Counted from the first letter of the stretch, positions 1 through 36,295 are shown. The stretch is 64,000 nucleotides of DNA from Microthyrium microscopicum (GCA_010405405.1 MU004231.1:1371784-1435783); one strand, 5' to 3'. The notes: generated by a model not told the origin, from the letters alone. Numbers and translations: made by a program.

Positions 1-3000
1 CAATTTAGATAGATCTATCTAATAGTCCTAAGTAGGATATATTTTTCCTTAGCTCTATTAATAGACGTACTTATTCTACTCTCTATAGCCCTATACTATC
101 TATAGCTACTAAATCTAACGAATTTACTACTAGTAGTTAGGGTAATAATATAGCTAGTAATTATAGTAATACTACTTATAGTAATAGTAATAGTAATAGA
201 AATAGTAATGCTAGTAGCTATATTAGTAAGGATATAGCTAGTAATATAGCTAATAGTATTAGTACTAGTACTTATAATAATATATCTAATAATAATCTTA
301 TTAGTAGTAATAACGCTATTAGTATTAATCTTATTATATATTTATTTAGTCTATAGTACGCTACTATATTAAATAAGTAGATAGAGTACTTATAAGATTT
401 TAATACTATAATTAAAGTTTTTATACTTTTAGCTATCTTTACTAATATACTTGCCTAAGAGGATAATAAAGCTAGTATTAATATTACCTCTCTAGGCTAA
501 TAATATTATAAAGATCTTATAAAAGCTTTACTTAAAAGATTACTATATATATAAGAAGATAAAAGGTTAGAAGCTAAGCTAGGGTAGGTAGAATCTTTAT
601 ATTATATAATTTTTAAGTAATAAGATATTATACTTATTACTAAGACTAGATATAGTAAGAGTATTATTTTTTAAGCTTTTAGTATTCTTACTAGTAAGGT
701 TACTCTTTAGGCTATTTTCCTTACTTTACTAAATTTAGAGTAGTATAAAGATATTATATAGCTCTCTAGTATAAACTTAGTTATTATTTATTTAGGGTTA
801 ATACTTAATAAATATGCTTAAGTCTATTATAGGTTACTTAATAGTACTATTACGTATTATTTACTTTCTTCTAAATAATTAATTAGTAAGTATATATAAA
901 AACTACTTTAAGATCCTTAATTCTAAAATAGACTTAGTCTAATTACTATTAATAAGAAATATTTTATTAAGAACTAGGGGAAATCCTTTTAAAAGGAATA
1001 TTCTTAGCTTTATATACTTTAAGATATTATTTCTTATTTTATTATTTAGTTTAGTTACTTAGGGACTTTAATAGCAAAAGCTAAGAAGTTTTTACTTAAT
1101 AAAGGAGGATTCTAGCTATATAAGGAATACTAAGATATTACTTATACTACTAGGTTTATCTATACTATTATTAATAGGCTAGATTTAGGTCTTTAACTCT
1201 TATATATTCTAAAAGAGAAGCTTAGTAATTAGTTAAGGTTAAACGTAGCCTTTAGTTAGGCTATTTAGAATTCTACTAATAGAGATTTATTTATAATACC
1301 TAAGTTTATACTATTAATTATAATTTTCTTAGATAAGCTATTAGATATAATATTTATTCTTAATTATCTATAATAAGCTCTAGTAAAGTTATATTCTAAC
1401 TTTACTTAGAGTAATTAGCTTTTTTTAGCTAGTATTTATACTATTATTTAATAATATACTAGACTAACTTAGAATTTTAATTAAGATTTATAATATATTT
1501 AGCTTAAGTAGTTTAATTTATTTTGCTATATTATAGTTATTATAACTATCCTTAATATAGGCGTTAATATTCTAAATATATATTACGTTATAATATAGAG
1601 TCTTCTATAAGGTAAAGTATTAGCTAATCTAGTTTAGAAGATTAGTTAAGTTAGTTATCCTAAAGCTAGTTATATTCTTTCTCTTTTACTAAAAATAGGT
1701 TTAGACTTACTACTACTTATCTTACCTAATCTAGATAACTAAACTTTCTTTAGAGTTAGGCTATTTAATTATATTCCTTCTTATCTACTAGTTATTATTT
1801 TTTTACTATACTAGTTATTTAATACTTAAGAGTAGTATTTAGTGCTAAAGTTTTCTTATAAGAAAGTAGATAATATATATATAGTAATAACTACTCTCTA
1901 GACTAGTATTAGTAAAGTTAATACTAAGGGCTATTTATTATTAGCTTTTAAGTTACTCTACGTAATATAAAATACTAATTTTACTACCTAACTAAGTACT
2001 TTAGTTACTACTTAGAAAGCTTAGGTATTTATTAATTTACTTAGTAGTCTAGTTACTATAGTTTCTACTAGTTATAACCTAAAAAGTAATAGACTACTAA
2101 ACTAGATATGCGTAGAAATTAGGTATAAGGCTATAATTAATTTTATCTAGTTAAAGTTAGTTAATAGTATACTATTATTAGATTCTAACCTTAGTTAGCT
2201 TTACTATTACTATTAAGTTATCCTAGACTACTTTAGAAACGTTAAATATTATTAAGGTACTTATATTAATTATAATTAATATTATAATATATATTAGCTA
2301 GATAAATTTATTATGCTACTACCTTAGCTTATTATAAAGAAGAAGCTAATAGTTCCTTATATAAAAATATAAAGGTAATATACTTTTAATAGCCTAAAAT
2401 AGTAAGCTACTACGTAGTTAGATAAGAAGTATTTAATTACTTATTAATAGCTCTTATTTAAGAAGTTTTAGTATATAGGCTAAACTAAGTTAGTTACTTT
2501 AAGTACTTTTTAGAATTTTACTAACTTTCTACCTTTTATAGATAATTCTATAAACCTAAATACTATATAGAATTAGATATATTTTATATATTCTCTTTTA
2601 TAGAAATAGAGAGTTATAAATATAGCTACTTATAGCTAATTATTAACCTTTCTTATTAGTTCTAACTATTAAGCTTACTATATAGTAGTATTTAAGTATA
2701 ATAAACCTTCTAGGTAGGCTAGTCCTATAGTACTATTATATTTATTTCCTATAGTTCTAAGTTTTAGTACTTATTACTATTTTCCTAAAAAAGTTAAGCT
2801 TATTAGTTCTTTACTAGTAAACTATTTATTAAGTTAAGTTACTTTAAGGTTTAAGTAGTTATTACCTATTATATGTCTAGCTACCTCTATTTTAGCTTCT
2901 TAACTAATATTTTTTTTATTATTATTATCTTAGCTCTTAGTAGTATTATCTATGCTTAGACTATTATCTTAAACTAGAACTAGGGTATCTCTTAATCTAA

Positions 3001-6000
3001 AGAAGAAATAAGAAAAAGGTTATCTTTATAAACCTAAATTAGCCTTTAAACTTTTAATTAATAAGAGTTTCTCTTAACTTTTACTTATAACGTTAACTCC
3101 TTTTTAGTATAATAGTAGTACTCTATATTCTTTCTTACTTAATATAGTTTTAGACTTATTTCTATTATATATACTATTACTAAATAAGCCTATAAGGTAT
3201 TAGCTATTAAACTATCTAAGTAGCTTCTTACTTTATAATACTAAAAGTAGTTAGTTAAGCTTACTATCTTACTCTTTAGTAACTAGTAGTTATAATAAAA
3301 AGTAATAATAAGGATTAGAAACTAGATATTAGCCTCTATATAATAATCTTAATTACTACTTTCCTTTATTCCTACTTTTTATAAATAGTCTAAATACTAT
3401 ATTATATAAAAGGATATAACGTAGCTTAGCTATCCTATAGTAAACCTAAGTAATTAATCTATCTTTAATATCTCTTTATAGTTTAGGAGAGACTACTATA
3501 CTAAGAAATAAGTTACCTTCTATATACTTATTCTATTCTTCTAATTTAGATACCTTTANNNNNNNNNNNNNNNNNNNNNNNNNNNNNNNNNNNNNNNNNN
3601 NNNNNNNNNNNNNNNNNNNNNNNNNNNNNNNNNNNNNNNNNNNNNNNNNNNNNNNNNNNNNNNNNNNNNNNNNNNNNNNNNNNNNNNNNNNNNNNNNNNN
3701 NNNNNNNNNNNNNAATATATCTATCTTAATAAATTTTAAATTATAATTTTATAATATCTTCTATATCTTTCCTCTACCTTAGCTATCTTAGATAGTACTA
3801 CTCTCTATTACTTTATTTTATTCTTAATTATCTATATATTATTATTATCCTTACTATATATTAAATTCTATCTTTAAATATTTAGTTATATACTTTTTCT
3901 TTTAAAATAATTTAATAGTTAAATGTTATTAAACGTTTTAATTAATAGATCTTAAAAAGTACGTTATAGAGTATTTTATTAATAAGATTAGAACTCCTAT
4001 TAGATTATATCTTTTATTACTTTCTTTTTTAAAACCTAACTTCTTATTAGTCTAAATTTACTATTAAATTATTTTTAAAGTTTACTAACTTTTTAAATAA
4101 TAGGAATATTTAAGGATTACTATTATAAGTAGTTAATAGTAACTATTATTAACTAAATAGGTAGTATTATTTATATAGATATCTTTAGTCTATATAATCT
4201 ACTATTTATAAAATCTCTTACTCTCTATATCTTTTTCCTCTTTCCTAAGTATTACTCTTTTAGCTTTAATCTATCTTTATAAGTTATTTAGTACTTATTA
4301 TACTTTTAAGTCTTATTATTTAGCCTCTAAGTAGCCTTTATTATATTCTTAGTTTATTTACTTATTAATAAGTACTTTAAGAAAAGTACTATCTATATAT
4401 TCCTCTACCTAGATAGTTATTATTACTATAAGCTATAATCTAGTTACTTTTACTTCTAAAACCCTTTATAAGTTATCTTTTAAGGTTCTTTATTAAGTAT
4501 CTAAGTAATAATTTATAGTCCTAATATTATTATACCTTAGTTAATCTTATTAGGTTATAGGCCTAATTTTAGCTTTTATAATAGCTATATTTCTTACGCT
4601 ACTTTCTATTAGCATTATAGTTAACTTTTTATTTTAGACTTATTTAATCTATATCTATATAGTTAGAAACTAGATATACTATCTACTTCTTAACTTTCTT
4701 TATTATCTTTTTTATAACCTACTTTTTTATTACCTTTAAGCTTTACTATTTCTATTAAGATACCTTTATTAATTTCTAAACCTATATTACTTAGTCTAAA
4801 TTCTTTATTTTCTTTAGATAAAGAGCTAAGAAATATTAATATTTTAGCTTTCTTTATTACTTTACTATTAAGATTGCTAAGTTTATATTATAATAGCCCT
4901 TTGCTTTTTGCCTAAGAGTTATTAGATATAGCTATATCTATAGAATTAGGTAAAGATAATAATATAGTATCTAAGTAAGAGAGTTAACTAAATAATAATA
5001 AAGTTATTTAATATATAGTTAAGAATAAGCTAACTTTAAATATAGCTTTTGCTTTATATTAAGATCTTTTTAAGTATAATAGTAATAAGTAGCTATATCT
5101 AAATAGTTAGCTATAGCTTTAAGTATCTTAAGAAACTAAGTCTTCTATTTTAAATTTAAATAAAGATAAGATACTCTTTTATTATATTCCTTATCTTCTT
5201 ATACCTTAATATTCTCTTTCTCTATAGCCTATAATAATTATAATGTTTATTTTTATTCCCTAACTTTTATTACTTAAGGAGGATTAGACTTAGTAGTACT
5301 TTACTTATAATTTAGTAACTAATTAGCTCTTTCTATTAGTATAACTATATATAGTTTATATTTTCTTTACTTTAATAGATTATAGTATCTTTAGTTTTAC
5401 TTAGTATAAACTTATTACTTCTTTACCTAAGTTTCTAAGTATTATACATTTACTATAGATATTTACTCTAAGATTTAGAGGATCTCTAGTTTATAATTTA
5501 AAGTTTATAGTATTAAATATTACGTTTATACTACGTTTAGCTTCTATAGTTTATAAAGCTATTTATATTACTTTTAAAGTTAATTAGTATAATTATACTA
5601 ACTTTAATTATTATAAGTTATACTCTATTAAAGAAGCTTACTAGTATCCTAATATACTAGAGTATTATTACTATCTTTAGTAGTACTTTTATCTTTTATT
5701 AAGTCTAATAAGTATTAGTATATTTTTAGATTATTTAAGCATTACTAATTAATAGGTATTAGGTTATTTAGAAGCTATTCTTATTTCTATATTTTATATT
5801 TATTAAGATATAGCTATTAATACTTACTATTACTACTAAGCTTAATAGCGTTAATTAAAGATAAAAGAGGCATAGAGAAAGTAGTATAAATTTACTAATA
5901 CTTAATATATATATTAGTTATTAGATACTTAAGCTAGGCATATATAATTTACTATTACTATATAGTAAGTTATTAATACTAATATTATTATAAATACGCC

Positions 6001-8175: not shown

Positions 8176-8605
8176 CTAATAGAGGAGTTTAGTAATATTA
8201 AGGTATAGAACTTAGTTTATTAAATATAAGTAACTAAGTATTTATAGTAAGTAGCTATATTATTATTTCTTAGTAAGGTTAAGCTAGAGGTAATTAAATA
8301 CTTAGATCTCTTATTTATAGAGCTATATTATAATTATTAATAAAGTTAAGTCCTATTATAGCTAGTATACTAGTAAATATACTATAAAGAATATTAAACA
8401 TTTTAAACGTTTTACTATAAATACTTATATAGCTCTAAATTAGTTTACCTACTTTTTCTAAATTCTAACTATATTATATACTTTTATATCTTAATCTTAT
8501 ATTTCTTATAATAGCTTTAAAAGACTTTTCTTTATATAGGCGTCTAGTAGTATTTATTACTATTTGCTTTATTTAAGAGCTTATATCTTAATGTCTAGAA
8601 ATATA

Positions 8606-8700
8606 TAATAACGTTTAATAACTTTTAATAACTTTTAATAACGTTTAATAACTTTTAATAATTTTTAATAATATTTAATAATATTTAATATCTTTTAATA
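8606..8700. repeat. 10-bp tandem array, ~9 copies (taataacgtt / taataacttt)
   Basis: Directly visible 10-nt periodicity. Confidence 0.85.
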
Positions 8701-11700: not shown

Positions 11701-13164
11701 TAATAAATATTATATTAAATATAGTATTTATTTAACTATATTTACTATAGTCCTTAGTATCCTTAAATAAATTAGTTATATTAACCTCTAAGCTACTAAG
11801 CTTANNNNNNNNNNAAGGTTGTTATAGCTATGCTCTTTATTTACGTAATAAGTATACTTAAAGAGTATAAGGTAGAAGTTTTATTAAAGAGTTAGTTTAC
11901 TATTATTAATATACTAGATAATATAGTTTATAACCTTAGTAAATCTTTATACTTCTAAGATTATATCGTAGTTCTAATTCTTATTTTAATAAGGATTAAT
12001 TATAGCATATGCTCTAAAAACTATAGCGTATTTATTAGAGTAGCCTATAACTTATTATAAGTAGTTAGTTATATTAAATATTTACTTTTTTACTTACTAT
12101 ATATATATAGAGAGTTTAGTACTATTTATCTACTATAGTTATTAATATAATTTAATAATAGGACGAAGAATTAAAGATAGAATATTATAAGTATAAGAAT
12201 ATAATAGTATAAAAGTTATAAGGCTAGGAAGTTAAAAGTAGTTAGATAGAAAAAAAAGTAAGATAATAGAATAGGAATATTTATAGAAAATACTAAATAT
12301 TTAATTTCTAATCTAGACGTAAAAGTATCTAAATAGTAGCCTAAAGTTACTAATTATATATATTACTAACTTACGCATAGTTAATCCTTATATAAATTAA
12401 TATTACTAATTAAAGGAATATAAGAATATTCCTTAATAAGGAAGAGGAGAATATAAGTATTATTAAATATAATACTAAGTAGAACTTATAATAAGCATAC
12501 TATTAATTATACTTACTATTAATAACGTCTATCTAATAGACTAGCCCTCTTAAGTAACTAATTATTTATATAAATATTTATATAGAGGCTACTAAAGACT
12601 TCTTTCTTAGTAGTAAAGTACTTAGATAGAGCATTAATGCTAATAAGGCTATAAGAACTCTCTTTCTTAAACTAAAAGTAGTAATATTAGTATTATAAAG
12701 TAAATACTAGGTATCTAAAAACTATTTATCTAAATATATTAGACTTACTTATAGAATTATATAATATTTACTTAATTAGCAAAACGTTCTAGCTATAATA
12801 AATATATTATTAACTAAAATCTTCCTTATAGGCTCTAGTTAAGTATAATTTACTAAAGCTTACTTTAAAGTAGCTTCTTAACGTATGCTTCTACTTATAA
12901 AGTTAACTTCTTAGTAAATATTACTCTCTTATATCTTTATAAAAATTCTATAGTATATCTATTAATTCTTACTATAAATTCTTATAGTAATATTTATACT
13001 ATAATACTAAGTAAGTATTTAGCATTCTCTATAATTATATAAATAACTAAAGTAAAGTTAGTAAGCTCTTTAACTACTTAAATTAATTAAACTATTATTA
13101 TTAACCTAACTAAGCTAGACTTTCTTAATTAGTCTTCTCTCTTCTTAGCTAGTATAGAGACTAC

Positions 13165-13415: not shown

Positions 13416-16400
13416 CTAAGGTAATAAGCAAGTTATATCTACTAATAGACTCCTAGCTAGATTTAACTATAAATTACTACTTTAATAAATAGTAGGTATA
13501 TTTAATTAATTTTATAAGTATTCTAACTATAGCGACGAGGTTTATAGCTAATTCTTATAATTTATTAGCCTTTAGATATAGTCTTATTACTANNNNNNNN
13601 NNAAGGCTTAATATTCTCTACCTTTATCTTAAGATTTATATATCTCTTAGGGATATAACTAAGATATATAGTAACTATCTTTACTTATAGTATAATAGTA
13701 GTTTACTCTATAGGCCTTATAAATATTATTATCTTTATAACGTATTAAGAAATATTAGTACTTTAGATTACGTAAGTATAGGTTTAAAGACTAGTACCTT
13801 TAAGATAATCTTACTATTATAATATCTATATACTACGTATATTTCCTTTCTAAGTTATATCTATTAGATTTTAATACTATTATAGTAGAGATTAAATATA
13901 AGAATTAAGGAAGTATTAATTTATTTTATATAGTTTATAGTTTAAGAAGTTTTAGTATTATATAGCATTCTAGCTATATATTAATTAAGTATTAAAAGAA
14001 TTATAGGATTAGGTTTTAAGTATGCCTAGTAATATATAGAATCTAAATATTAGGTTTAATACAAAAAAAAAGAAAGAATATATAAACTAGAGATATTAGT
14101 AGAATTTTAGTAATCTTTAATTATTCTTTAGGTTTCTCTCTTTAGTAGCTTAGGAAGAAAAGTATTAAGAATTTTATTAATTAATATATTATATACTATA
14201 ATAGTTATAAGATTACTACCTACTATTACCTATAAATTATCTATAGCCTAGCTAGGTAGATCTAGACCTTATTTAACTATCTATTTAAGTAGTTTTATAT
14301 ATTCTATTTTCTTCTTAGATAACTTAGCTTTAGACGCAAATAGTTTATTAATTAGGCCTAATATAAAAGATATATCCTAAGATTTACTTCTTAATAGTAT
14401 ATTGCTAAGTAAAATTTAACTACGCTTTAAAGGGCTAGTATTAAGAGATAACTAAGATTTGCTTTTAATAAGCTTAATAATATTTAGATTATTATTTATA
14501 AAGAAGTTATCTTCTAGTCTATATATATTAGGATTATTCTAAACGTAAGGATCTTATATTTTTAAGCTTTACTATACTTTACCTCTATTAGTAAAGTAGT
14601 AATTAATAAGTAATTTATAATGCTTTTTATTTTCTAAGTAAGTATATAGAATATTAGGCTTATAAAGATATAAAAGACTTTTCTATCTACTATCTTTATA
14701 GAATTATAAAACTATTTTTAGATACTTATTAATATAAGTAGGAACTAAGCTAGAATACTTAATATTATAAAACTCTTATATAATAAAGCTATTATATTTA
14801 ATCTTATTCTTATTAAGAGCATTAGCTTTATCTTAAGTCTCTTTATTATAAAGAATTAAGCTTTAAACGTTTAGCTAGTTAGTATATAGTAGGTAAGTAT
14901 TATAAGTAGGAGACTAGTTTATATTTATTACTTAACTTAATAGTCTATTATTTATTATTACTATAGTTATAGTTTACTCCTCTAGTTAAGGTATTAAAGA
15001 AATACGCTTAGTATTAGGATTAAGTAGAGTATTAGCTATATCTAGTTTTTATTTATAATTCTTATTTAGTACTAATATTTTAAGTTAAATATTAGGACGT
15101 TATTTATAAGTTATTAAATTCATAGTTTCTTATTAGGCTTAGAATTATATAATAGTAAGTAGAAGTCCTTCTTAAATATAGAAAGAGTCTTAAGAAATAC
15201 TACTAGCGTAAGTTATAAAGTTAAGTTATAATATAGTCTATAGAGAGTTTAGATATACATAAGTATTTTTAAGGTTAGCTAGTTATAGTTTAGGTAGAGT
15301 ATTATTAGCTACTTCCTAAATCTATTATATAAGATCCTATAAGTATTATAAGATAGGCATTAAGTATATTAAGATAATAGATAAGTAGTTAGGATATATA
15401 GGTAGAATATAGTTAGTTAAAGAATAGAGGAAGTATTTAGAATTAAACTATTAGTAGTTATAGACTTATAGTATAAATATAATAAAATTTTATAGAGTTT
15501 ATTAACGTTAAATAATTTATTATAACGTTAAAGCATTATTATAAAGATATTAGCTTAATAGTAGTAGGTTATATTAACGTTAGTCTATTATATTAGTTTA
15601 TTAGGCTACTTAATAACCTTAAGGCCTCTATCTAGTTTAGTTAGCAAACGTTTAAAAAGATTTAAAAGATTTAACAAACGTTTTAATTAGTTTTAAAAGA
15701 TTTAGTAAACCTTTTAATTAAATTTTATATCTTTTAAGCTTAAATAAAAGTATTAAGGATATTTAACATTAATTACTAAAGTAATAAGTATAGCATATTA
15801 ATCTAAACTAACTATATCTATAACTTACTAAATACTATATTCTATCTAAGTTTTATAGCTAAAGTTAAGAATATTATAAGAAACTAATATACTAGCTTCT
15901 TTTATATCTAACATTAGGTTATATATATTATAGTAAGCATTACTAGAAAGATAGCTTTTATTAGTTATACTTATTATAACCTTAACTATATTAATATACC
16001 TTAATATCTAGACCTACGTAATCCTTTTTAGCCTAAGGTTATAATAAAAAGAAGAGTAATATAAATAGCATAGTAGCTATATTTTATATTAAAGGCTATA
16101 GATAATAAAGTAAATAAGATAAATTAAATAAAGTAATAAAAAGTAGAAAGAGTAGTTAAGTAGACTTATAATAAATCTAGTAAAGAAATAATAGACTTAT
16201 ACTCTACCTTCTAAATAAAGAATATTAATTAATTAATAAGGTAAATATTATAAGGTTAAGATAAGGCATATCTTAGTAAGTAAAAAGAATTTATAATACT
16301 AATAGATAAGTATACTTATAATATTTAAAGAGTATATTTCTTATTTACCTAAATAGAAGATTATTAATATCTTAGCTAAACTTAAAAAGAATCCTAGCGT

Positions 16401-19400: not shown

Positions 19401-20463
19401 TATAGTACTAATTATCTAAGTTCTTATCTAGTAAGAGTACTATAATGTTTATAAGTAAGAAGGATATAATAAGTATAGAGTAAGTAAAGAGAGAAGTAAG
19501 AATTTATATAGTAGTAGTTTATACGTTAAGAAGAAGCAAAGTATTAAAGATAGTAAATAAATATAATATAGGTCTATTAATAAAGGTCTTAGATTAAATA
19601 GTAAAAAAGGCAAGTAATAACTATTAAAATAGGACTAGCTAATATTTAATATAGTATTAAACTTACTATTAATTAATAATATGCTAAAGAATAAGTAAAT
19701 ATAAATAAAATAATAATAAGTTAGTTAATTAGCAATTCTATAATAAGAATAGAGATAAGAATATAGTACTAAGTCTAACTTTTATAAGTTATAAAGAAAA
19801 GAATAGAGTAGTAGAAATATAGTAAGTATATAGAAGGATATAAAAAAATAAACTAGATAAATAAAGCTAATAATATATATTTTACAAAAGATATTAAAAT
19901 AGTAATAGTTAAAATAATATAGAGTAAGTAGCTCTTACTTAATAAGATATAATTTATCTAGATAGACGTTTCTATTAGTATTTAAACCTTTACTAACTAT
20001 TAAATATTATAAGACTTTACCTTATTTATCCTAGATTTTTAATATTTTAATAACGTTTAATTAGTCTTAACCTATAATAATAACAAAATTCCTATTATAA
20101 GATATAAATACTAACTTTATATTCTATATTATTTATATAGTTATTTTACTTCTACTTTATACTATAAAGTTATTATAATATCTAAGGTTATTATACTAGA
20201 AATATAATAAAATTAGGTAGTTAAATAATAAGTATTTAGTTATATCTTCTAGATTAGGTAGAAATAGTAAATAATAATGCTTTATATATTTATAAAGAAT
20301 ATAATTAATAAGTATATATATTAGATATAAGAGTAGAAGAGTACTAAGATTAATATAGTTATAAAGAATTAAAGAAAAAATATAGTATTAAGTAAGCTAT
20401 TAGAACTATTTAGTAATACCTAGTATAGTAATAATAAAAAAGACTTTATTATGCTAACTTAAT

Positions 20464-21075
20464 AGATAATAAAGATAGTATCCCTAAGTTAAATCTATCT
20501 TAGTATACTTTTAAGAGCTACTACTTAGCTAATAAAGATACTATTCTTAAATTAAAACTAGCGTGACTATTTTAGAGAACTATTATATAACTAATATAAA
20601 TACTATTCTTAGATTAAAACTAACGTAACTATTTTTAATTAATATAAATTAGCTAATATAGAAACTATCCTTAGATTAAAACTAATACAACTATTTTTAA
20701 TTAATATAAATTAGCTAATATAAAAACTATCTCTAAATTAAAACTAACGTAACTATTTTTAATTAATACGAATTAGCTAACATAGAAACTATCCCTAAAT
20801 TAAAACTAATATAACTATTTTTAAGTAATATAAATTAGCTAATAAAGAAACCATCCCTAAATTAAAACTACTATAGCTATTTTTAAGTAATATAATATAG
20901 CTAATAAAGAAACTATCCCTAAATTAAAACTACTATAGTTGTTTTTAAACAATATAATATAGCTAATAAAGAAACTATACCTAAATTATAATTACTATAG
21001 CTATTTTTAAACGATATAATATAGCTAATAAAGAAACTATACCTAAATTAAAATTACTATAGCCTTTTTAAATAT
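20464..21075. repeat. 62-bp minisatellite, ~10 copies
   Basis: The agctaa(t/c) anchor recurs at 20527, 20589 (aactaat), 20651, 20713, 20775, 20837, 20899, 20961 and 21023 (exact 62-bp spacing), plus a diverged copy at 20464. Confidence 0.93.
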
Positions 21076-24000
21076 ATATTATATAGGTAGCATAGCTAAT
21101 ACTAGTACGTTAGATTCTAAGGAGCAATTTTTAAGAGGTACTTATCTAACTATATAATTAGTATAAATACTTACTAACTACGTAAGATTTTAGCCTTTAA
21201 GAGAATATACTATATATATTTTATATATTATATAGAAATATATCTTCCTTACTTATATCTAGGACGTATACTCTATCTAACATAAATATATTTAGATATT
21301 TATAATACCTTAATAAATAAATAGAAAGTAATTAGTAGATACAAAATATAGTAAAAGTCTATATAATATATAAGTATATTCCTTAAAGTATAGCTATTTA
21401 TATAAGGTATATTATAAGATTCTATATATTAAAAAGGCTAAAATATACTAATACATTAGAAGTAATACTATAAGTTATATATTTCTAAATTATTTGCTAT
21501 AACTATAGTATATATAAGAATAAAGATAAGCTTACTTACTAAAGTATTTAAATCGTAAAAGGATAATTAAAGTTAGAAATAAAAAATAACGTAAGTTATA
21601 TATAAAAGCTAAACCTTAGGTAAGTATATTATTTAACATTAGCCTAAATAAGTCTAACGTTAAATAATATACCTAGTTAACGCTTTAACGTTAGGCTATA
21701 GATAGAGTAAATATTAAGCTAATATTATAGTTTCTTAAGTTAAATCTTTAAATATTAAGATTAACTAAACTAGTAAGCTAATTAATACTAAATCTTTAAT
21801 TCCTTAGCTATAGACTTTACTAACTTATTTATAATATTAATTATTAACTCTAGTTTCTAAAAAATAGTAAGAAGTAAATATAAATAACTACTATCTTTAA
21901 TATAATATAAGCGTAATATAGGCTAATTATTACGTATAAGTAAGTATAACTAGTTTATTAACTAGTTTTACTAATTACTATATTAAGATAGATAAAAGCA
22001 GGATAGTAGGTTTAAGATAACTAAGTAGAATTAAATAAGTAACTAAATTAATAGCTATTTGTATTATATTTATATAAGTAAGTATTCCTTAAATTTTAGA
22101 TTTTCTATATACTAATACTATATTCCTATTACTTATTATATATATAGATATATTAAATTAGCCTTAAGATGCCTAGTTTATAATAAAATATATTATTACG
22201 TTTATTACTATCTATAAAATATACTAGAAGTAAAACTTAACTAAATGCTTATTATAGCCTTTTAATTACTTATAACTATTGCCTAAAATAAGATAGTTAA
22301 AAGAGTTCTAGAAATAGCCTATTATAATACTATAGGCTTTTATAATTATTAGCTAAGAAGGACTAGTTAAATTAAGTAATAGTAAAATACTAATTATAGC
22401 TATATTAACTCTTACAACTATTGCTTATTAAGATGTATCTAATTTAAGTATTAAAGAAAGTCCCTATTCTAACACTATAAGCTAATCCATAAGTCTAAAT
22501 ACTCTAAAGAATACTACTACTAAAGCTAAGAACCTACCTATCTGCTATTAACCTAATAAAAACTATCTATTAATTTATATAGAAGATATAACGTAACTAT
22601 TACTCTTTAGTAGTTATTAAATTATATAGTTACTTATACTAGGTAGAATTCTACTTATTAGTAATATAGCCTTTATAATTAATTAAGATAATAGTATTTA
22701 GGCATAGGGCTAAACTTAATATCTACTAAACTAGTACTATATATACTATATAAAGATATAAGGCTATTTACTTTATTCTTTATATAATTAGTAATATAGT
22801 ACTTATAAATAAGTAAGATAGTATCTAGGGCCTTAATAACTTTTACTAAATAAGTATCTAAGCTAATACAAAAGAATATAACCTAGTTACGCTAACTAAA
22901 GTCTTAGTATTAATATCCTTAGATATAACTTATAAATTATATCTTAACTTAACCTTATTATTCTTACCTACTAAGCCCTTCTCTATCTTTTTAATAAGAC
23001 TAAGTAAATTACTTAAATTTATACTACTCTTAATACTTATGCTAGCTTTATTAACCCTAACTTACTTACTATTTAGACTTTTCTCTTCTATATCTTTTAT
23101 TACTTTTACTAACTACACTATTACTATCTTGCACAATCTTACTCTATAAGCTTACTAGCTTATTAAAGGAGGTAAACTATTTAACGCTTATAACGTGTTT
23201 TGTTATACTATTAAACTTAATGCTATTATTTTACTTAATTATAATAGTATACACAAATTAGTTAATAGTCTTTAAGTAACTAATATTATTTACTAAGTTA
23301 ACTAGGATAAAGGCGTAGGCCTATATAATAATTTTAGGGCTACTTATTATAGTAGTATAAATATCTATATCTACTACTTAGAAGAATATAGCTAGAGTAA
23401 AGATAGAAAGTACTATAACTATACTAGGATACTACTTAGAGCTATTACTTATATTATATTTAGATAAGCTCTCTATTAATATAATAAGGTATAAAGGACT
23501 TTGCTCTATAGTAGATAACTATAGAGTAGTTAAACTAATTATAACTAGTATTATAACTACTTTAAAGTTAATCTAAGACGAAAAGAATAAGAAACAAGAA
23601 TTAGAGTACTATAAAGTCTAGAAAGTACTTATTTAGGTAATCTAGCCTAGTAATAATATTACAATTAACGAATTTTATAATATAATAATAGCTACCTTTA
23701 TTAATTACTATAAAGAAGTCTACTCTATAGTACTACTATAGAGTAGCTAGACTACCTCTAACTAGTAGTTATTATAACTACTTTAGAGTAGTTTCTATAT
23801 AAAGATTGCACATAAGGAAGTTAAATATAGCTTATTATTAAAATATACTAGTTATACTCTTATAATAGGTATTTACCTAAGTTCTAGCTATATAAGGAAG
23901 TGTAAGTATTAATTTTAAGTAGGATAAAGATAGAGCTATTAAGAGCTAAATGCCTAAAACTATAGGTATAGTAATATCTTTATTAATAATATAGTATACC

Positions 24001-24885
24001 TTTAATAAAAGCTACTAAATAGATCTAAACGTATATTAATTTATAGTAATATTACTCTACTACTTTTAAATTATATCTTTACTATCTTAAAACTAATATA
24101 GTATTTAGTAATAACGCCTAAGAACTATAGGCATAGTAGCTAGATACTTAGAACTATAAATATAAAATAAGTAGAGCTTCTACCTTCTTACTAATATCTT
24201 GCTATAAATTAACTATACTTCTAAGACTTTATAGTCTTTTAGTAGATATTAAAAGAATAAGCGTAGCTTATAATACTAATATTAAAGTAAATAGAGTAAT
24301 TAAAGACTATATTCTAAGTAATATAAGACTTAGCATAGGTAGCGTCTTCTCCTTATTATACTTATCTTATATTATAATAATGCTAATAATATTAATACTT
24401 ATTAGTCTACTAAGGACGTACTTTTTCTTATTATATTTCTTTAGTTCTTTTAGGCTATTTATTCTTAGAAAGTAATTTTATAGCCTTAGCTATAATTTCT
24501 ATATAAAACTTTACGCATCTTAATAAAAGATTTATTATTTAATCCCTAGTACGTATAAGGGATTTAGAAATTAGTATATAGAGGATAGTTTATAGAATTA
24601 TTACTAAATAAAGGTAGAATAGCTAGGTAGGCTAATTAATCTTTAACTTCTTCCTTAGTATATTGTATATCTATTAGTAATATAATTTTAAGTTGCTTAC
24701 TATTAGAGTTAGTAGTTCTACTAAGTAAAATAATAAATAAAGATAGAATTCTAAAGGATAAAATATTACGTAGTAGTAAGAGTTTATAGTAAGTTATAGT
24801 TTATATAAATATATTATATTATATATCTTTATATAATAGCAAATAGCTTTACGTAATATTATATAATATTAAACGTATTAATTGC

Positions 24886-24964
24886 TATTAAACTATATTA
24901 AACTATATTAAACTATATTAAACTATATTAAATAATATTAAACATTATTAAACATTATTAAATA
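24886..24964. repeat. 10-bp tandem array, ~8 copies (aactatatta / aacattatta)
   Basis: Directly visible periodicity; followed by taaacgttttaaacgtttta at ~24993. Confidence 0.85.
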
Positions 24965-26584
24965 CTTTTATATAAATACTTAAATAAATACCTAAACGTT
25001 TTAAACGTTTTAGCTTAGATTAGGAGTTACTAAAATATAAGAACCTAGGTAATAAGTTATTATTTAAGATACTTTTACTAATAGTCTTTACGTAATAGAA
25101 TACGTATTTTTAATAAGTTTATTTTACCTAATTATATTTACCTAATTAACTATAAATTAATACTTATAATAGTAATTATTCTTTTACTAGACTATCTATA
25201 TAAATAATATATTCTATATCTTATAAGTAATAGCATTTTATTTTAATATATTATATAAAAAAGAATTATTAATATACTAATCTTTTCTATAATAACCTAG
25301 CCTAGCTATCTTTATTAATAGGGTTCTATATATTTACTAATAAAAAAATAAGAACTTTATAAATACTTTTGCTAATAGTACTAGAAAGTAGTCTAATGTA
25401 GTATTTTATAATTAAATTAGGCTATACTAAGAGTAAATTAATATAATGGTTTTCTTTTTTAATAACTAATAGTAAATATCTTTAAGTCTACCTATTAGCG
25501 CTTATAATTAGTACTAGCCTTAATAGCTAAGGAATAATATATATAACTAGCTATAATACCTCTAATTAACGTACTCTAGTATACTACCTATACTTAGNNN
25601 NNNNNNNNNNNNNNNNNNNNNNNNNNNNNNNNNNNNNNNNNNNNNNNNNNNNNNNNNNNNNNNNNNNNNNNNNNNNNNNNNNNNNNNNNNNNNNNNNNNN
25701 NNNNNNNNNNNNNNNNNNNNNNNNNNNNNNNNNNNNNNNNNNNNNNNNNNNNNNNNNNNNNNNNNNNNNNNNNNNNNNNNNNNNNNNNNNNNNNNNNNNN
25801 NNNNNNNNNNNNNNNNNNNNNNNNNNNNNNNNNNNNNNNNNNNNNNNNNNNNNNNNNNNNNNNNNNNNNNNNNNNNNNNNNNNNNNNNNNNNNNNNNNNN
25901 NNNNNNNNNNNNNNNNNNNNNNNNNNNNNNNNNNNNNNNNNNNNNNNNNNNNNNNNNNNNNNNNNNNNNNNNNNNNNNNNNNNNNNNNNNNNNNNNNNNN
26001 NNNNNNNNNNNNNNNNNNNNNNNNNNNNNNNNNNNNNNNNNNNNNNNNNNNNNNNNNNNNNNNNNNNNNNNNNNNNNNNNNNNNNNNNNNNNNNNNNNNN
26101 NNNNNNNNNNNNNNNNNNNNNNNNNNNNNNNNNNNNNNNNNNNNNNNNNNNNNNNNNNNNNNNNNNNNNNNNNNNNNNNNNNNNNNNNNNNNNNNNNNNN
26201 NNNNNNNNNNNNNNNNNNNNNNNNNNNNNNNNNNNNNNNNNNNNNNNNNNNNNNNNNNNNNNNNNNNNNNNNNNNNNNNNNNNNNNNNNNNNNNNNNNNN
26301 NNNNNNNNNNNNNNNNNNNNNNNNNNNNNNNNNNNNNTATTAATTATATTAAACTCTACTTAACTAAATAACCTAAATGCCTTAAAAGTAATATTATTAA
26401 AACTAAATTATTATTAAATATACTATATAAGTAACCTAACGTATTACTAATATAATATTTTCTCTTCTTTATTATAACTTCTATCTTTTTAGTATTATTA
26501 TTTAAGTATATAAAATACTATATAGGACTAAAGACTAGATAATAATTTAGGAAGCTACTACTATATAATAGCTTATTATTAAAG

Positions 26585-26790: not shown

Positions 26791-28195
26791 ATATTATATT
26801 TACTAGCTACTCTCTTTAAACTTTACTATATAATAAAATAAATAAGTAGTAAGTATAATATATTTCTTAAGTTATATATTTTAAGAAATTTCTAATATTG
26901 TAGTAGTCCTTAGACTAGTAATTACGCTATAATTTTAGCTATATTACCCTAAGCCTCTCTCTAAAGGATTCTTATTAAAGTTAAAACTATAATTATATAA
27001 GACTTAGAGCTATTTAAGGAGCCTAATACTTTAAGAAAGTTATCTAGGACTATTTATTAGTTTTTTAGCCTTATTTTAATAGCTAGAATATTTAAGTTAG
27101 AACTACCTAAAGATTAACTATCTAAACTTAAGATATATTTATTATCTATTTAGGTTACTACTATTACTAGCCCTTAGGAAAATATTTATCTAAACTTTAA
27201 TACGAATAAAATTAGCTTACTATAGCAATTATTCTTTATATAATATTAGACTTAAAAGATCTAAGTCTCTATTATTACTTATACTTAGAAATATCTTAAT
27301 CTAAAGCCTAATATAACTAGGAGTAGCTTATTATAGTATAAACTATATTTAAATATAACGTTAATAATAATAAGTATACGCTAAATCTAGCCTTTAATAT
27401 ATTTAAACTACGTAATAAATATAACTAGGAGTAGTTAAGCCTATTCTAAGTAGACCTTAATGTTATTTAATACTCCTTATAACTACTAAGCTCCTAAAAG
27501 CTTTAGGAATTTACTTACTTACTACAATACTAGTTATATTTAAATATAAGGTTTTAAATTAGAAGAGTATATTAGTATATAATATACTAAGTAGTAACGA
27601 TAAGGACCTCTAGCCTAAATTAAAGTTAATAACTATAGGTAGTAAATACTTACTAAACTACTCTTTTATATATACTAATAGGAGTACTAGTTATTATAAA
27701 TAAATAATTAAATATAATAGTATATTAGCACTACTTAAAGTTAGTAACTATAGTATATATAAAAGGTAAGTTACTCTTTATATTATTTAACTAAGACTAA
27801 TATCTATAGCATTATACTCTCTTAGTTTTATGCTCTTAATAATACTACTAATATAACTATTAACTACTCTTCTCTAAATTATAAATATCCTTATAGACTA
27901 CCTAAGATATACTTAGCCTTATATTTTTAAAACTAATAATGCTAATATCTTTATATTAATGAGAAGTTTAAATTTACTTATAGCATATTAGCTATATTAA
28001 AAATAGACTTAAATATTAGCAAAAATACTCCTATATATTCTACTTAAGACTATATTAATTAACGCTAAGAATTATAAATATGCTAGTTATTAGCTATCCT
28101 ATTTAATTAATAGAATAAGCTACCTAAATAGTAAAAGCTAAATATAAAGGTAAAAATATGCTTAAAAAGCCTAACTTAAGAAGCTTATAGATAGA

Positions 28196-28516
28196 ATACG
28201 CTATTAAAACTTATACTACTAATATAGTAAAAGTTAAGGCTAGGTTATTAAAATCTCTAAGTTTAATAATAGGACTCTCCTTTATATTAATAAGGCTTAT
28301 ATATAAGATACGCTACTAGAACTTATACTATTAATATAGCTAAAATTAAGGCTAGGTAATTAAAATCTCTAAGTTTAATAATAGGAACCTTTTTTATATT
28401 AATAAGGCTTACGTATAAGATATACTACTAGAACTTGTACTATTAATATAGTTAAAATTAAGGCTAGGTTATAAAATTTCTAAAACTAATAACGCTAACC
28501 TTCTCTATATTAATAA
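28196..28516. repeat. 112-bp tandem repeat (~2.8 copies)
   Basis: ata(cg/ta)cta..a.aact...aaggctagg at 28196, 28308 and 28420. Confidence 0.88.
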
Positions 28517-30399
28517 GAAATCTAAATTCACTTATAGTATATTGCCTTCCTTAATTATAAACGTAATTATATATAGAAATAATTATAAATATATTCCTTA
28601 AGATAATCCTAACTAACTTTAAAAACTATAAATATACTAAAAGCTAGTTAATACTAACTAACTAATATCTTTTAAATTAATAATAGAAACCTTATACTTC
28701 TAAGGATAATATATAGTTTACTATAGGCTTATTATTAAGTACCTTAAATATAGGCTCCTAGTAAAATAAGCCTATTATTAGCTACCTTAAGTATAGGTTT
28801 ATAGACAAGCTAAAATAGTCCTAGTTAAATTAATTAAGGCTAGTTGTCTAATATTAAGAATTTTAAATATACTAAACTTAAACTCTTGCCTATTATACGT
28901 TTAATAAAACTAGAATCTTTTAGTTATATAGTAGATTATAAAGAAATACTTAAATAACTAAAAATACTATATTAATTAAAGATAATAGCTTTATTATAGT
29001 ATTAAAATATAACTAAAGAAACTAGTAAGACTTAACTATTACTTAGTAAAGATATAATTATTTAAAACTTAGAGCTATTTAATAAGCTAACTTTATATAG
29101 TATCTATAAAGAGTATTAGTTTCTTTCTAAGCTAATAAACTTTAACTTTATTCTTAAAATTTTAGTTAATAAATTTTAAGTCTTATACTATAAATAGTAT
29201 AAAAGTTTTTACCTATATTATAAGTTTAATATTATATAGGGGTATAATAAAGACTAGTTCTTAAAAACGCTTTATTATCTAAGTACTAAAACTAATCTAT
29301 TTATCTAGTAAGAATAATAGATTAGTAATAATAAATAAGAGAATAAAAAATACCTTTCTATATACTCTATTTACCTTAATAGCGTTAATACTTAGCTAAT
29401 TAATCCTATAGAACTAGCCTTAATAAATAAAGTAGCTTATTATATACTACGCTATTAAGAACTACTTTAATAACTAGGTAGTTTAGAATATTAGACTTAA
29501 TATATATTATTAAGTTGCTATAGTATTATCTAGCTACCTTTAAGTTATATTTTTAATATCTTAAAACTAAGAAAGTTTCTAGTAATAACGTCTAGGATAA
29601 AAAGAATAAAAAATAAGAAGCAAATTATTATAAAGTCTAGGAAGTATTTTTTTATACTATTTAGTTTATAAATAAAATACTTAAAAGTATTCTTTATATA
29701 TAAACAAAATAGAATAAACTATATATTAGCTAAAATAAAGTATCTATATCTTAATACGTATAGTTTAACTAAATAAGGTATCTTAATATTATTAAATTAG
29801 CTCTAATTATCTAATATATTTAGTAAAAGTACTTATACGCTATTTCTTATTTATAGCTACTTTATATATATATAGATAAGGAATAGTAGTTAGTATATAA
29901 CTAATAAGTTAATTTAACTATTAGTAAGTAAGAGAACTATAACTAAGGCAATATTTATATTAGTTTATATTACTTAGGAGAAATACTACGTTATAGTATA
30001 AAAAGATATAGGTAGTATATAGTTTAAAGTAATTAACTTTTAAACTATAACTAGCTTATATTAATAAAGGCTAATAGATAATTACTTATAAATAACTATA
30101 TAAATATAATTACTATAGTAGTAACTAGAATCTATAGGAATTCTACGAAATATTATAATATAAGGAACTAACGTATAAGGTATTATATTAATTTTAATCC
30201 TCTCTAATATCTTATTATAGGTCTTAACTAACTATATCCTAAAATATACCTTACTATAAGTACTAATATAATTTAAACTATAAATATAATACTACTATAA
30301 AAGGGTTTAGACATTAGATTATTCTATATTATACCTTTATTAAATTAAGAGTAGAAAACTTAAGGATTTCTAGTGCTTTATAATTAAAGTTATCTTTAA

Positions 30400-33300
30400 T
30401 AGGTTTAAAACTATTATTATTATACTTATTAAAATAAGCGTTAATAAGTAACTTATTATTATTATCTATATTAATATTCTCTTCTATATAAAGGTTAAAT
30501 AGAATCTAGTTGTTTAATTTACTAATATTAGGTCTAGTTATAGTATTAAGGTTATTATTATTTAGATCTTATTACTCTATATATAATATTAAAAAATCTA
30601 AATTAGGAATATTATTATTAACTATATTATTCTTACTAAGGAGTCTAAACCTACTCTTTTTAGCCTATAAAGGAAGTATAAAGGTATTATTAAACTTATT
30701 AATAAATACCTAAAGCTTTTCTCTAAACTAGGTAAAGATATTAAGAGATAAATATAGCTCTTTAGCGCTAATAATAAGCTCCTAAGGCTTAGTATATCTA
30801 TTCTTATTTAGATTAATTACCTAAAGATATATATTATTAATAATAATTACTATTTTATAATCTTTATTAGTACGTTACTTAAACTTAAACTTAAATAGAT
30901 TCTAAAGCTTATAAGAATATATACTACCTAAATAGATATAATTAAACGTAACCTAAGGATTATAAGTAGAATTCTTATAACTCTTTATATTAATTTTATA
31001 AATATTATTTAGATATTTAAGTCTAAGATCCTATACCTTAAATAACTTCTTATTACCTTTCTAATTAATAAAAACAGAATATAGAATAGCCTTATAGAGT
31101 TATAGCGTATATACTCTAAGTAATAATAACTATTACTAGTATAATAAAAGATATATATATTTATATTAGTTTACCTTAGTAAAAAAGATAGTTATATGTA
31201 GAAGTAATAACTAGAATAGACTAATATTACCTATTTTAATTACTTATTTATAATAAAGGAAGAATAAAACTTCCTAAAGATACTAATACTACGTTTAAAA
31301 GTTAAGGTCTTTATAGTCGCTAATAAAAGATATACTCCTATTTTAGGCTTCTTTAAATAAAGTCTTATCTTATATCTACTTAAAAATACTAATATACTTA
31401 TTAAGAGTTAGATAATTAATAATATTATTAATTTTAGTTTAGTTAGCATAAAACCCTAGATTATTATTAATACTCTTACAAAACTTCTTTTTAAAAAAAA
31501 TATATAGAAAGATAGACTCTACGCGTAACCTAAACTTATAAAGTAATAGTAGCTCTACTTTATTAAACTTTAGGTTAGCTTATAAAGGGATTAGACGTTC
31601 TTAGAAACTAGTATCTATATCTAATATATAAACTTTATTAAGATAAAAAGTATTACCTATAATACTTAAATATATACGTATTAATACTTATTAATAGTTA
31701 AACCCTATATATTAATTTTTAAAATATAGTAAGATAAAATCTTTATAATTAAATAGTAAATAGGCTTTAACCTACTTAGTCTTTATAGTATAACTATTTA
31801 ATAGTAATAACTAATCTTTATAAACTAGAAATAAATAAGTTTAGAAATTATCCTCCTCTTTATAACTTATATTTTAAGGTACTATTAGGCGTAAAGGTAG
31901 TTTATCTTTATTAGTTTCTATATATATAGTATTAATATAATAATTAAATATCTTATTAGTACTAAGTATAGGAAGAGTATATAATTTTAACCTTAGTTAG
32001 TTATAAAATATCTAATAGAATATTTAATACGTACTAGCCTTAGTACTAGGATTATTATATATAGTACTAAGTTAAAAATATTTAATAGTAGTTAGAGAGA
32101 TAATATCTATAGAAGGCTAAGTAAGAACTTTATTCTTACTATTCTTAAATATATTTTTTTAAAAGTTTAGATACTATTCTAAAAGCTACTTATATAAAAG
32201 TACTAATTATAAAACTAGACTATACTATTTAGGTTTATAAGTATCTATATTAATTCCTAAAATAAAAGGTAAGTTAAATATAGTTTTAATATCTAATAGA
32301 ATAGTAAAGTTAAAATTAATTTTAAGAAAGCCTTCCTAAGAAATAGAAGGATACTTAGTAAGAACTATTACTATAAAATTTAGCTATTTAGTTATATTAC
32401 TATTAACCTTATTACGCTTAGTATTTTATATATTATAGTTATTAAAAGTTATAGCTTAATTACTATTTTCTTAGGCTATACTTTTTAAGAGAGCCTAAAA
32501 AAAGGTTAGTATATATAACTAGATATAAAACGTAATTAGCTAATACTAAATAAATACTAAGAAGGAAAGTATATAATATACCCTAAAAGTAAAGAATAAA
32601 GTTTATATAATATTTCTTAACGACTTATTTAAAACGTTTAAGACTATTTAAAACGTTTAAGTCTCTTAAAATATTTATACTATTTAAAGAGTTAGTATTA
32701 TATTAAACGTTTTAAACGTTTTAAACGTTTTAAAGGGTAGTAGTAAATAATTACGTATCTTTAAAGTAACTAATAATTAAATGCTAATATTTATAATAGC
32801 TATATATAAATATAAGATAAAGAGAACGTTTTAATAATATACCTTAGCTTCTTCTAAAATAGTATTTAATATATTTAGAGATATAGTATAACTATACGTA
32901 ATACTTATCCTATTTAATAATTCTATTAATTACCTCTTTATACTAGTTATATAAAGATATATACCTAGAGTCTTAAAAAGAAAATTTAACTATTATTACT
33001 ATTAAAAGTAGTAAACTATAGCTATTATATAATAGATAGCTTATTTAGCAATTATTTTACTCTAAGAAGTATTTTCTTTAGCTAGCTAATTATATTACTA
33101 ATTACGTATTAATCTTAGAAGGAATACTATTTACTAAGAAGTATATATTTCTATATTAGTTATAGTAGAAAAGAAGGTAAGATTTATAATAGGAATATCT
33201 ATAAAGAATTTACTAAACTAGATAAATCTTTATAGAAAAGGAAAGAGCTCTTACTTAAGGGAAGATTTAAATATAAGAAGAGAAATAAGCTAATCTTTCT

Positions 33301-33550
33301 TAAGGTACTTTACTAATAAAGTAAATAATATTTTTATAATACGTATAAGTATAGTATATTAAAGCTATACTATATAAAGATATAAATTCTCTATATAGAT
33401 AATTTTGCTAGTATAAGTAGTATTTCTAATAAATATATAAATTAATTATAAAAAAGAAATATTTTTAGCTAATATAAACTAAATAAACTTATATAGTATC
33501 CTATTAGTTATAAATATATTATAAGTACTATAAGTAGGTAAATCTAAAGT
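30400..33550 (-). pseudogene. RIP-inactivated DUF6589-family (Academ/AcademH-like) transposase remnant; limits approximate
   Basis: Minus-strand reading with RIP (TA<-CA/TG) reversed by eye gives, in family order: 'NFLPKTLGIYLHTTGVKRRLIELLNRMGITCSY' (~32890-32990), 'VTFDNY' (~32440), 'PGTKAGTYQIFHQIFHNQLGL' (~31990-32050), 'IKIGDIG' (~31214-31240) and 'VNWKGN..FK..DLGLEHLNN.YK' (~30995-31070). A probable intron at ~32495-32820 ends in ACTAAC..TTTTAG. Confidence 0.72.
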
Positions 33551-34012
33551 TATAGCTAATAATATAGTAGAAATAAGTACTAAAGTAAATAATATAGTAC
33601 TACTAAATAATATACTAATAAATACTATATAAGAAAGAGTATACAAAGTAGCTAAAAGAGAGAGTATAGTTAAAAGAATAAAATAACTATTTCGTTATTA
33701 TAAGAATAATTATAGTAAAATATATAAGTAAGTAAATAGGGCGTATAGTTAAGTTAATCTTTATAGTAGTATACTATATTACTAATAGTTAGAAAAATTA
33801 CTAAAAAATAACTAGTAAGTAGTATAAGTAATTAAAAAGTAATAAATACTAATTAAATAATAAAATTAAATATAATAAGAAAGATCTTGCGTATAAAAAA
33901 TATAGATAAAACTAAGAATAAGCTAAAATAGATATAATATATAGCGTATAAGTCTTTCTTAGACTCTTAAGGAAGAATTAGGTTAATAGAGTATAATTAG
34001 TAGGTTTAAGGG

Positions 34013-34075
34013 GTTAAACGTTTTTAAAAGTTAACTAACCTAATAGGGTTAGTTAACGTTTGACAAACGTTTAAC
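34013..34075. repeat. 63-bp hairpin (28/29-bp near-perfect inverted arms, 6-nt loop) at the AT/GC boundary
   Basis: gttaaacgtttttaaaagttaactaacc-taatag-ggttagttaacgtttgacaaacgtttaac; the outer 11 bp and inner 11 bp of the arms are perfectly complementary. Confidence 0.85.
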
Positions 34076-34733
34076 TTCTTCCCGTAGAGAGTCTGAGTCC
34101 ACTGAGATAAATTCTTAGCCTTGCAACGTCATGAATCAGCCCAATTGGCCAATCAGCATTTCGAGCAAGAAAGAACAAAACTCGAGATTAGACAAAATGA
34201 ATGGCGCGCTCCCAGCGAGTGCGATGGCTCCCGTACGAAGCGATCTGGTATCGAGTGCTTTATTTACCATTGAGCGCCTTCAGATTTGGACATTTTGTAT
34301 CATGCGATGGGAAATATACTACCTTTTGATTAATAGCGTTCGTGTGGGAGCCATCGACGCTGATGGGAGAACGTTAGTTATTATGTCCATCGGATGATAT
34401 GTTAGAGACATGGGATGTGATGTATACACAGTCGATGCTGCAGGCTGGCATTATTTATCATGATGGCGAGACAAGCCTAATACATACAGCCCATAATCCT
34501 TTCCTTTCCATGCAATACGTAGGTACCCAGCGTAACAGCGCCTAAAAAAAGGAATATAATATATATCCATATGCATGCTATACGTAGCACCACCATGATC
34601 TCGTACGCCGAACCATATCATCATGCCATCCGATCCAATCCCATGTCCAGCGTCCGAAATATGCCCATTCATGCCCAACCCATATCATCATACACATACC
34701 GAGCCAAACCGCCAGAATCCATTCAAGGGTTCT

Positions 34734-36295
<1,562 letters not shown>

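Follow-up and report, generated by a model that had tools for sequence, protein, structure and literature searches.

The stretch of DNA analysed here, 64,000 nucleotides of Microthyrium microscopicum (GCA_010405405.1 MU004231.1:1371784-1435783, one strand, hereafter called the window), begins with a block of approximately 34 kb that is heavily mutated by repeat-induced point mutation (RIP). The block carries near its left end the relic of a RecQ-like superfamily 2 (SF2) helicase gene and near its right end the relic of a gene encoding a DUF6589 protein, a putative transposase. The left helicase gene points right and the right transposase gene points left, with approximately 27 kb between them. 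As judged from sequence comparisons, all but a small part of one helicase-plus-DUF6589 (AcademH-like) element most likely lies within the window. Its main features, with hidden Markov model (HMM) scores from profiles of the family, are the following:

1-34,110, no strand: RIP-mutated part of the element within the window, delimited by RIP indices, gene relics at both ends and a single family terminus
510-1,628, plus strand: RecQ-like SF2 helicase gene relic (family HMM independent E value (i-E) 7.7e-27, 82 bits, profile positions 77-459 of 975)
3,200-30,400, no strand: interior between the converging genes, ~27 kb
30,662-32,470, minus strand: DUF6589 transposase domain relic (family HMM E 1e-55, 177.6 bits, in one frame, profile positions 6-552 of 600)
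32,831-33,127, minus strand: relic of the upstream exon or open reading frame (ORF) of the transposase gene (family HMM i-E 1e-8; tblastn with N_L009, E 9e-7)
34,091-34,110, minus strand: right terminus of the element, reading inward TTATCTCAGTGGACTCAGAC, not RIP-mutated, its start common to the ends of 10 relatives

The block is heavily RIP-mutated DNA. Its G+C content per kb is 0.12-0.24 across 1-34,000, compared with 0.44-0.55 in genic DNA; TpA/ApT is 1.55-1.80 in the block and 0.58-0.90 in genic DNA, and (CpA+TpG)/(ApC+GpT) is 0.03-0.15 and 1.18-1.47, respectively. RIP needs duplicated DNA. The mutation stops at about 34,070, and the last ~40 bases before 34,110 are spared. Four runs of N interrupt the block, at 3559-3713 (155 bases), 11805-11814 (10), 13593-13602 (10) and 25598-26337 (740). 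Both the strongly RIP-mutated 34-kb block and its four gaps had been described in an earlier reading of the same sequence, hereafter called the initial annotation, and the indices and base counts agree with that description. The tRNA and Rfam scans of 1-34,110 gave no match.

The DUF6589 relic was used as a phmmer query against 1.84 billion proteins, which gave 82 matches at E<=1e-3, the best with E 3.2e-19; a word-based protein homology search with the same relic gave nothing. The family DUF6589 was present in all 16 of the 82 homologues that were scanned (E 2e-55 to 4e-72, 188-244 bits), and the homologous proteins bear the source names 'hypothetical' or 'DUF6589 domain-containing protein'. 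With tblastn of all 82 homologues onto the window, 60 of the 61 matches fell at 30,611-32,116, the other one being at 32,843-32,986. On the relic itself, with stops read as X, Pfam PF20231 scored 24.6 bits (E 1.3e-5), under the cut-off of 27, at approximately nt 31,408-30,980 of the minus strand. By homology, the relic is a RIP-damaged member of PF20231. The phmmer and family HMM results thus uphold the DUF6589 relic that the initial annotation had reported, directed inward from close to the right edge of the block. The start of the transposase gene, placed from the upstream exon relic, would be near 33,750, approximately 0.36 kb inside the end of the element.

A RecQ-like helicase, which the initial annotation had proposed to look for, was found at the opposite end of the block. 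In addition to the family HMM match, tblastn with the helicase ORFs of three relatives (L006, L008 and L001) matched nt 504-1,595 of the plus strand with E values of 4e-13 to 9e-15. Among solved structures, the helicase of the relative L009 is closest to members of the RecQ family, with E. coli RecQ first (2.2e-19), followed by WRN, RECQ4, RECQ5, RECQ1 and BLM. No family-profile match to the C-terminal half of the helicase was obtained beyond nt 1,628, and the six-frame Pfam scan missed the helicase relic entirely. The family profiles, built from metagenome relatives, were run on the six-frame X-translation of all 64 kb and gave one helicase match, one match to the upstream ORF and one DUF6589 match, none of the three occurring a second time. 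A hexamer-like (AGTAAT)n repeat with a very strong period-3 signal is present at 146-313, just upstream of the helicase relic.

Intact relatives were obtained from metagenome sequences, in which an alignment of 14 phmmer matches led to 33 loci. The DUF6589 ORF of these relatives encodes approximately 600 amino acids, and before it there is an ORF of approximately 300-390 amino acids without a Pfam family. A converging ORF of 929-1,068 amino acids with DEAD and Helicase_C domains follows the DUF6589 ORF in all five loci with enough flanking sequence (L006, L008, L009, L010 and L014), and in L001 the same converging helicase is present 6.2 kb from the DUF6589 gene. The helicase and DUF6589 relics of the window have the same converging order as in these five relatives, which points to one element, and we infer that both belong to one copy. 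In the relatives, the slot separating the two genes measures 49 bp (L009) to 6.2 kb (L001), compared with approximately 27 kb in the window, and tandem arrays are present between the two genes in relatives too. The 15 interior ORFs of the relatives included no clear cargo, giving one weak Gypsy SH3 match and two stray matches. A large ORF that was tested in L029 encodes the reverse transcriptase of a long interspersed nuclear element (LINE), which has no relation to the family.

The relatives also define the ends of the element. A common box, found by local alignment and as an exact 8-mer, opens the conserved part at 11 ends in 10 loci, and consists of TTATCTCA plus CAGAC or CTCAG; the 25 bases preceding TTATCTCA differ at every one of the 11 ends. 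The 5' terminus common to the relatives is TTATCTCAG, of which the window contains a single copy, at 34,110. The 8-mer TTATCTCA likewise has a single occurrence there, at 34,110 on the minus strand, and a RIP-degenerate two-box pattern matches only at this position. The window bases directly after 34,110 are ATTCTTAGCC. In 3 of 12 local alignments of the window edge with the ends of relatives, the common box outscored every one of 60 shuffles, and blastn of the end of the window element against the relatives gave no match. Since the common terminus of the relatives occurs once, at 34,110, the end of the element is placed here, 24 bp further than the terminus at 34,086 given in the initial annotation.

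In L010 the box is present at both ends, inverted and 7,662 bp apart, with 22-nt inverted ends of 91 % identity. The flanks of these ends, read by eye, have no common direct repeat of 1-12 bp, and on the left the flank is one of the element's own repeat units: a unit of 130 bp (L010:7-139) adjoins the left TTATCTCAG box on the outside and has three inverted repeats between the genes (L010:3296-3570). Either the element in L010 reaches past its box or it adjoins a piece of itself. The ends L009:8260(-) and L018:4236(-) have 45 identical inner bases within unlike flanks, and this sequence comparison indicates that the family was probably active recently in some environmental fungus.

A second end was searched for within the window. 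The RIP-degenerate search for the end motif of the initial annotation, which was expected to mark the other end, gave 4 matches compared with 2.0 expected, a chance result. The degenerate true terminus, with 3 mismatches allowed, gave 12 matches in the window compared with 10.9 expected, also at the level of chance, and RIP-aware alignment of the terminal 120 nt within the window gave no second copy above shuffles. The distance from the end to the helicase ORF is 362 nt in L010 and 461 nt in L009, and because of these distances the left end of the window element should lie approximately 80-180 bp before nt 1, by analogy with the relatives, which would make the element approximately 34.3 kb long. 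With the conserved terminus TTATCTCAG, copies of the family can be located and their limits set.

Short motifs are distributed along the block. The motif AAACGTTT occurs in 14 copies in the window, all inside the block, compared with 0.47-2.64 expected from Markov models of order 1-3, and neither the second RIP block nor the genic part of the window contains a copy. The sites and arrays, none with an assigned strand, are the following:

3,931-3,938: interior AAACGTTT site
8,405-8,700: interior AAACGTTT (8405) and a 10-bp array, TAATAACKTT x9.5 (8606-8700)
14,865-15,725: interior AAACGTTT (14865, 15646 and 15676), an AACGTT cluster and a 31-bp array
24,866-25,010: interior 10-bp array (24,866-24,962) whose unit is the reverse complement of that at 8606-8700, then TAAACGTTT x2
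32,579-32,768: AAACGTTT array and palindrome at the junction of the transposase exons, five copies
34,008-34,080: subterminal palindrome (hairpin) with two AAACGTTT copies, fold z -5.9

The interior from 3.2 to 30.4 kb contains seven of the AAACGTTT copies in five clusters, where 0.35-1.77 copies would be expected (Poisson P at worst 0.0024, with tandem copies being non-independent). This enrichment bears out the motif family that the initial annotation had traced from the terminus through the transposase intron to about 3930. The relatives have short motifs of their own in the same layout, at both ends, at the transposase-ORF junction (L001:1475; L005:1498-1640) and between the genes; L001 contains 22 copies of its own motif, AACTTCTG. 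The hairpin near the boundary was likewise recovered: none of 200 shuffles folded as well as the palindrome at 34,008-34,080, and on the 120-nt end z was -4.5. A subterminal hairpin as a trait of the family was rejected, since a comparable one was present in only one of nine ends of relatives (L030). An apparent 430-bp inverted repeat between 8.6 and 24.9 kb was also rejected, as it consists of the two 10-bp arrays, and without the arrays 19 of 150 controls scored equally.

The fold of the DUF6589 protein was modelled from the relative P0003, not from the relic, with an alignment of 41 sequences. The model had a mean predicted local distance difference test score (pLDDT) of 83.2 and a predicted template modelling score (pTM) of 0.82. 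In exhaustive structural alignment of the model against 48,161 chains, the Drosophila P element transposase was the top match (Z 9.7, root mean square deviation (rmsd) 5.6, 280 residues aligned), followed by Hermes (Z 9.1, rmsd 6.5, 265 aligned) and ISCth4 (Z 8.5, rmsd 4.4, 202 aligned). Transposases, integrases or RAG made up 31 of the top 34 rows, and the lower matches included retroviral integrase cores, Tn5, IstA, RAG1, Mu, Sleeping Beauty and Mos1. On the basis of this model, DUF6589 is likely to have a DDE (RNase H-like) transposase fold. P element and hAT (Hermes) transposases, the best structural matches of the model, are both built on an RNase H-like core that carries a large helical insertion; the modelled protein differs from them in sequence (9-10 % identity), and P and hAT elements encode no helicase. 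Pfam assigns no function to PF20231, the family carried by the homologues of the relic, and in the literature searched the name DUF6589 was met only as a suggested virulence factor. The comparisons made here place a helicase gene beside the family, add the conserved TTATCTCAG termini and predict a fold like that of DDE transposases. For DUF6589, of 'unknown function', they offer a concrete reading: it may be the transposase of a DNA transposon that also encodes a helicase.

The element would then be a cut-and-paste DNA transposon with two converging genes, a RecQ-like SF2 helicase gene on the left and a two-exon DUF6589 gene on the right. The DUF6589 enzyme would bind arrays of a short motif near the ends (AAACGTTT in the window copy), cut at the conserved TTATCTCAG termini and reinsert the DNA, with the helicase assisting; these roles of the motif and the helicase are proposed from the layout of the element. 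The window copy would be a long-bodied variant, its length being due to the approximately 27 kb in the slot between the genes (0.05-6.2 kb in relatives).

Kolobok elements have a TTAA target duplication, to which the TTATCTCAG inverted termini do not point. The AcademH lineage of Academ DNA transposons was reportedly described by Kojima in 2020. By architecture alone, an AcademH-like assignment would fit the window element. AcademH elements are described as having target duplications of 9-10 bp (PMC10045372), and as encoding DEAD/Helicase_C helicases and being low in copy number in Ascomycota (PMC10799480). AcademH and the window element have in common that they are fungal DNA transposons with a putative or known transposase and a DEAD/Helicase_C helicase. 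AcademH has inverted termini; in the DUF6589 family such termini are seen in L010, and the window shows one end. The target duplication of 9-10 bp given there was not seen at the ends of L010, where the left flank is a repeat unit, and the window copy differs from AcademH in its length of ~34 kb, 27 kb of which separates the two genes. KolobokH (PMC10799480) is likewise a DNA transposon with a DEAD/Helicase_C helicase. In the literature searched, no description of giant Academ-type elements was found.

The interior contains tandem arrays and little that can be assigned to a protein family. In the six-frame Pfam scans of 1-34,200, DUF6589 was the only match and no other family was found. An LTR-like pair (LTR, long terminal repeat), a reverse transcriptase (RT) domain or a second terminus was not found in the interior with Pfam, self-comparison and terminus searches, and tblastn of 505 ORFs from the loci of relatives against the interior gave no match. 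In a purine/pyrimidine self-comparison, which is noisy, with decoys scoring up to 252 bits, only tandem arrays and the LTRs of the second block (310 bits) scored above the decoys. A split duplication (24,034-24,123 and 29,508-29,597) had an E value of 2.7e-14 in plain blastn, and its 141 bits in the two-letter comparison were under the decoy maximum. The tandem arrays of the first block total approximately 2.5 kb and include, in the interior, 62-bp units x9 (20,463-21,134) and 112-bp units x3 (28,176-28,517). The period-3 signal of former coding sequence was scored as the number of windows of analysis exceeding 95 % of the null:

helicase relic: 4 of 4 windows
transposase relic: 11 of 12 windows
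3.7-7.4 kb: 12 of 16 windows
7.4-16 kb: 13 of 34 windows
16-25.6 kb: 7 of 45 windows
26.3-30.4 kb: 4 of 18 windows
second block: 32 of 50 windows

Former coding sequence is therefore likely in the left part of the interior, and there is little on the right.

We tentatively favour reading the block as one dead copy of approximately 34.3 kb, a helicase-plus-DUF6589 element of which the long interior was already a part at the time of its last duplication. One ~34-kb element is the simplest reading because the 64 kb contain a single relic of each gene and a single family terminus. We lean to most of the interior being the element's own and having moved with it, because it contains motif arrays of the element, no signs of foreign elements were seen in it, and RIP, for which duplication is required, has mutated it along its whole length. 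Of the giant cargo-carrying element put forward in the initial annotation, the single large element is retained, and the cargo is not: no cargo gene was identified in the block with six-frame Pfam, which is insensitive on this DNA, or with the ORFs of relatives.

A number of observations weigh against the preferred reading. Pfam is insensitive here, having missed the helicase and left DUF6589 below the cut-off, so that the empty interior is weak evidence; the Pfam scan still has some value, because it did detect RT_RNaseH_2 (42 bits, E 1e-10) and RT_RNaseH (32 bits) in the second, more strongly mutated block, both on the minus strand, with none on the plus strand. The period-3 signal is near the null over 16-30 kb, both in the 16-25.6 kb and in the 26.3-30.4 kb segment, and cargo genes are not evident there. 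RIP-mutated DNA extends past the left edge of the window, and the left terminus lies outside it. Depletion of CpA is weaker at 14-26 kb (0.08-0.15) than at the gene-bearing ends (0.03-0.04), which hints at differing histories of the middle and the ends of the block. The window element is about fourfold longer than intact relatives, L010 (both ends) being 7.7 kb and L001 (one end) at least 13.46 kb. Within the 6.2-kb slot of L001, a weak match to a Tf2-type/Gypsy integrase SH3 domain is present at L001:5336-5785 on the minus strand (25.5 bits, cut-off 30), a trace hinting that slots between the two genes can grow by retroelement insertion. As to the enzyme, Foldseek of the P0003 model against the PDB gave no match at E<=1e-3, and the structural Z values are only moderately above those of unrelated models.

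Several of these points would also be explained if an ordinary helicase-plus-DUF6589 element of approximately 8-14 kb had been swollen by nested insertions in its slot and then mutated by RIP, the 34 kb never having moved as a whole. We regard this as a serious possibility, if short of a probable one, and as almost as likely as the preferred reading. Nested mosaics are usual in RIP-mutated AT-rich blocks, a Gypsy-type LTR element is situated 3 kb away, and the sizes of relatives (7.7 kb and at least 13.5 kb), the weak retroelement trace in the enlarged slot of L001, the unlike RIP index of the ends and the middle, and a Pfam scan too insensitive to exclude decayed elements all agree with it. 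Against this, the interior is without a second terminus, an LTR pair or an RT/RNase H trace, of which LTRs and RT/RNase H were found in the second block by the same methods, and the AAACGTTT copies form five clusters over 3.9-25 kb, so that at least four separate insertions would be needed. It is improbable that the two relics are instead truncated copies of different elements, with unrelated RIP-mutated repeats between them in a repeat graveyard. The unseen left boundary, with RIP-mutated DNA leaving the window, the unrecognised C-terminal half of the helicase past nt 1,628 and the four gaps in continuity would allow it; however, the order and strands match the converging layout of the family, each gene is present once, there is no extra terminus in the 34 kb, and two truncations leaving complementary and correctly oriented halves would be less parsimonious.

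Starships, which are giant elements of Pezizomycotina, are led by a DUF3435 tyrosine recombinase. They resemble the block in being fungal, tens of kb in length and subject to inactivation by RIP, whereas the genes at the ends of the block encode a DUF6589 DDE-like enzyme and a helicase. No tyrosine-recombinase/DUF3435 or integrase family was found in the six-frame Pfam scans of the block, which are insensitive; inward from the right end DUF6589 is met first, and the leftmost gene is the helicase, neither being a Starship captain. The initial annotation had set the block apart from Starships, and the end genes agree with this. That the block is a giant element of the Starship type, or that ordinary genes were segmentally duplicated here and mutated by RIP, the DUF6589 element being in either case a passenger, is very improbable: the size is in the Starship range and the codon-like periodicity at 3.7-7.4 kb suggests former genes of unknown kind, but DUF6589 and helicase genes stand beside the observed and the inferred end, and the RIP boundary lies within 40 bp of the DUF6589 family terminus.

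If the interior moved with the preferred ~34-kb element, there would be a second route to giant, potentially cargo-carrying fungal transposons, by means of a DDE enzyme and a helicase. Independently of this, the slot between the converging genes emerges as the site at which these elements grow, from 0.05-6 kb in relatives to 27 kb here. That this ascomycete has a lineage of giant DDE-type transposons with DUF6589 and a RecQ-like helicase at opposite ends and an expandable slot, moving tens of kb as a unit, and forming a second giant fungal class mechanistically unrelated to Starships, is conceivable and at present rather unlikely.

The DNA beyond the element consists of a gene-bearing island and the second RIP-mutated block, for which the features are the following:

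37,161-48,003, minus strand: LTR retrotransposon, 10,843 bp, with 152-bp LTRs at 37,161-37,312 and 47,852-48,003 (TG..CA)
~42,220-42,552, minus strand: RT-RNase H relic of the LTR retrotransposon (RT_RNaseH_2 42 bits, above the cut-off)

The second RIP block is one LTR retrotransposon, with two LTRs, RT/RNase H and near-matching flanking 5-mers (agatc and GGATC, equal at four of five positions and one transition apart). An Rfam tRNA match is present at 47,522-47,615 on the minus strand, approximately 240 bp inside the right LTR, with 38.6 bits (gathering threshold 29) and 94 nt for a model of 71 positions; ARAGORN called no tRNA at 47,522-47,615. The match may represent a fragment derived from a tRNA or related to a primer, or else a tRNA gene that is dead and carries an insertion. 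Between the two RIP-killed elements, 34,111-37,160 is an unmutated island of 3 kb with a multi-exon protein-kinase gene (Pkinase, minus strand). On the side of the island facing the DUF6589 element the RIP signal halts no more than approximately 40 bp from the end of that element, and in the retrotransposon it fades within each LTR, the outer part of which is spared and the inner part reached.

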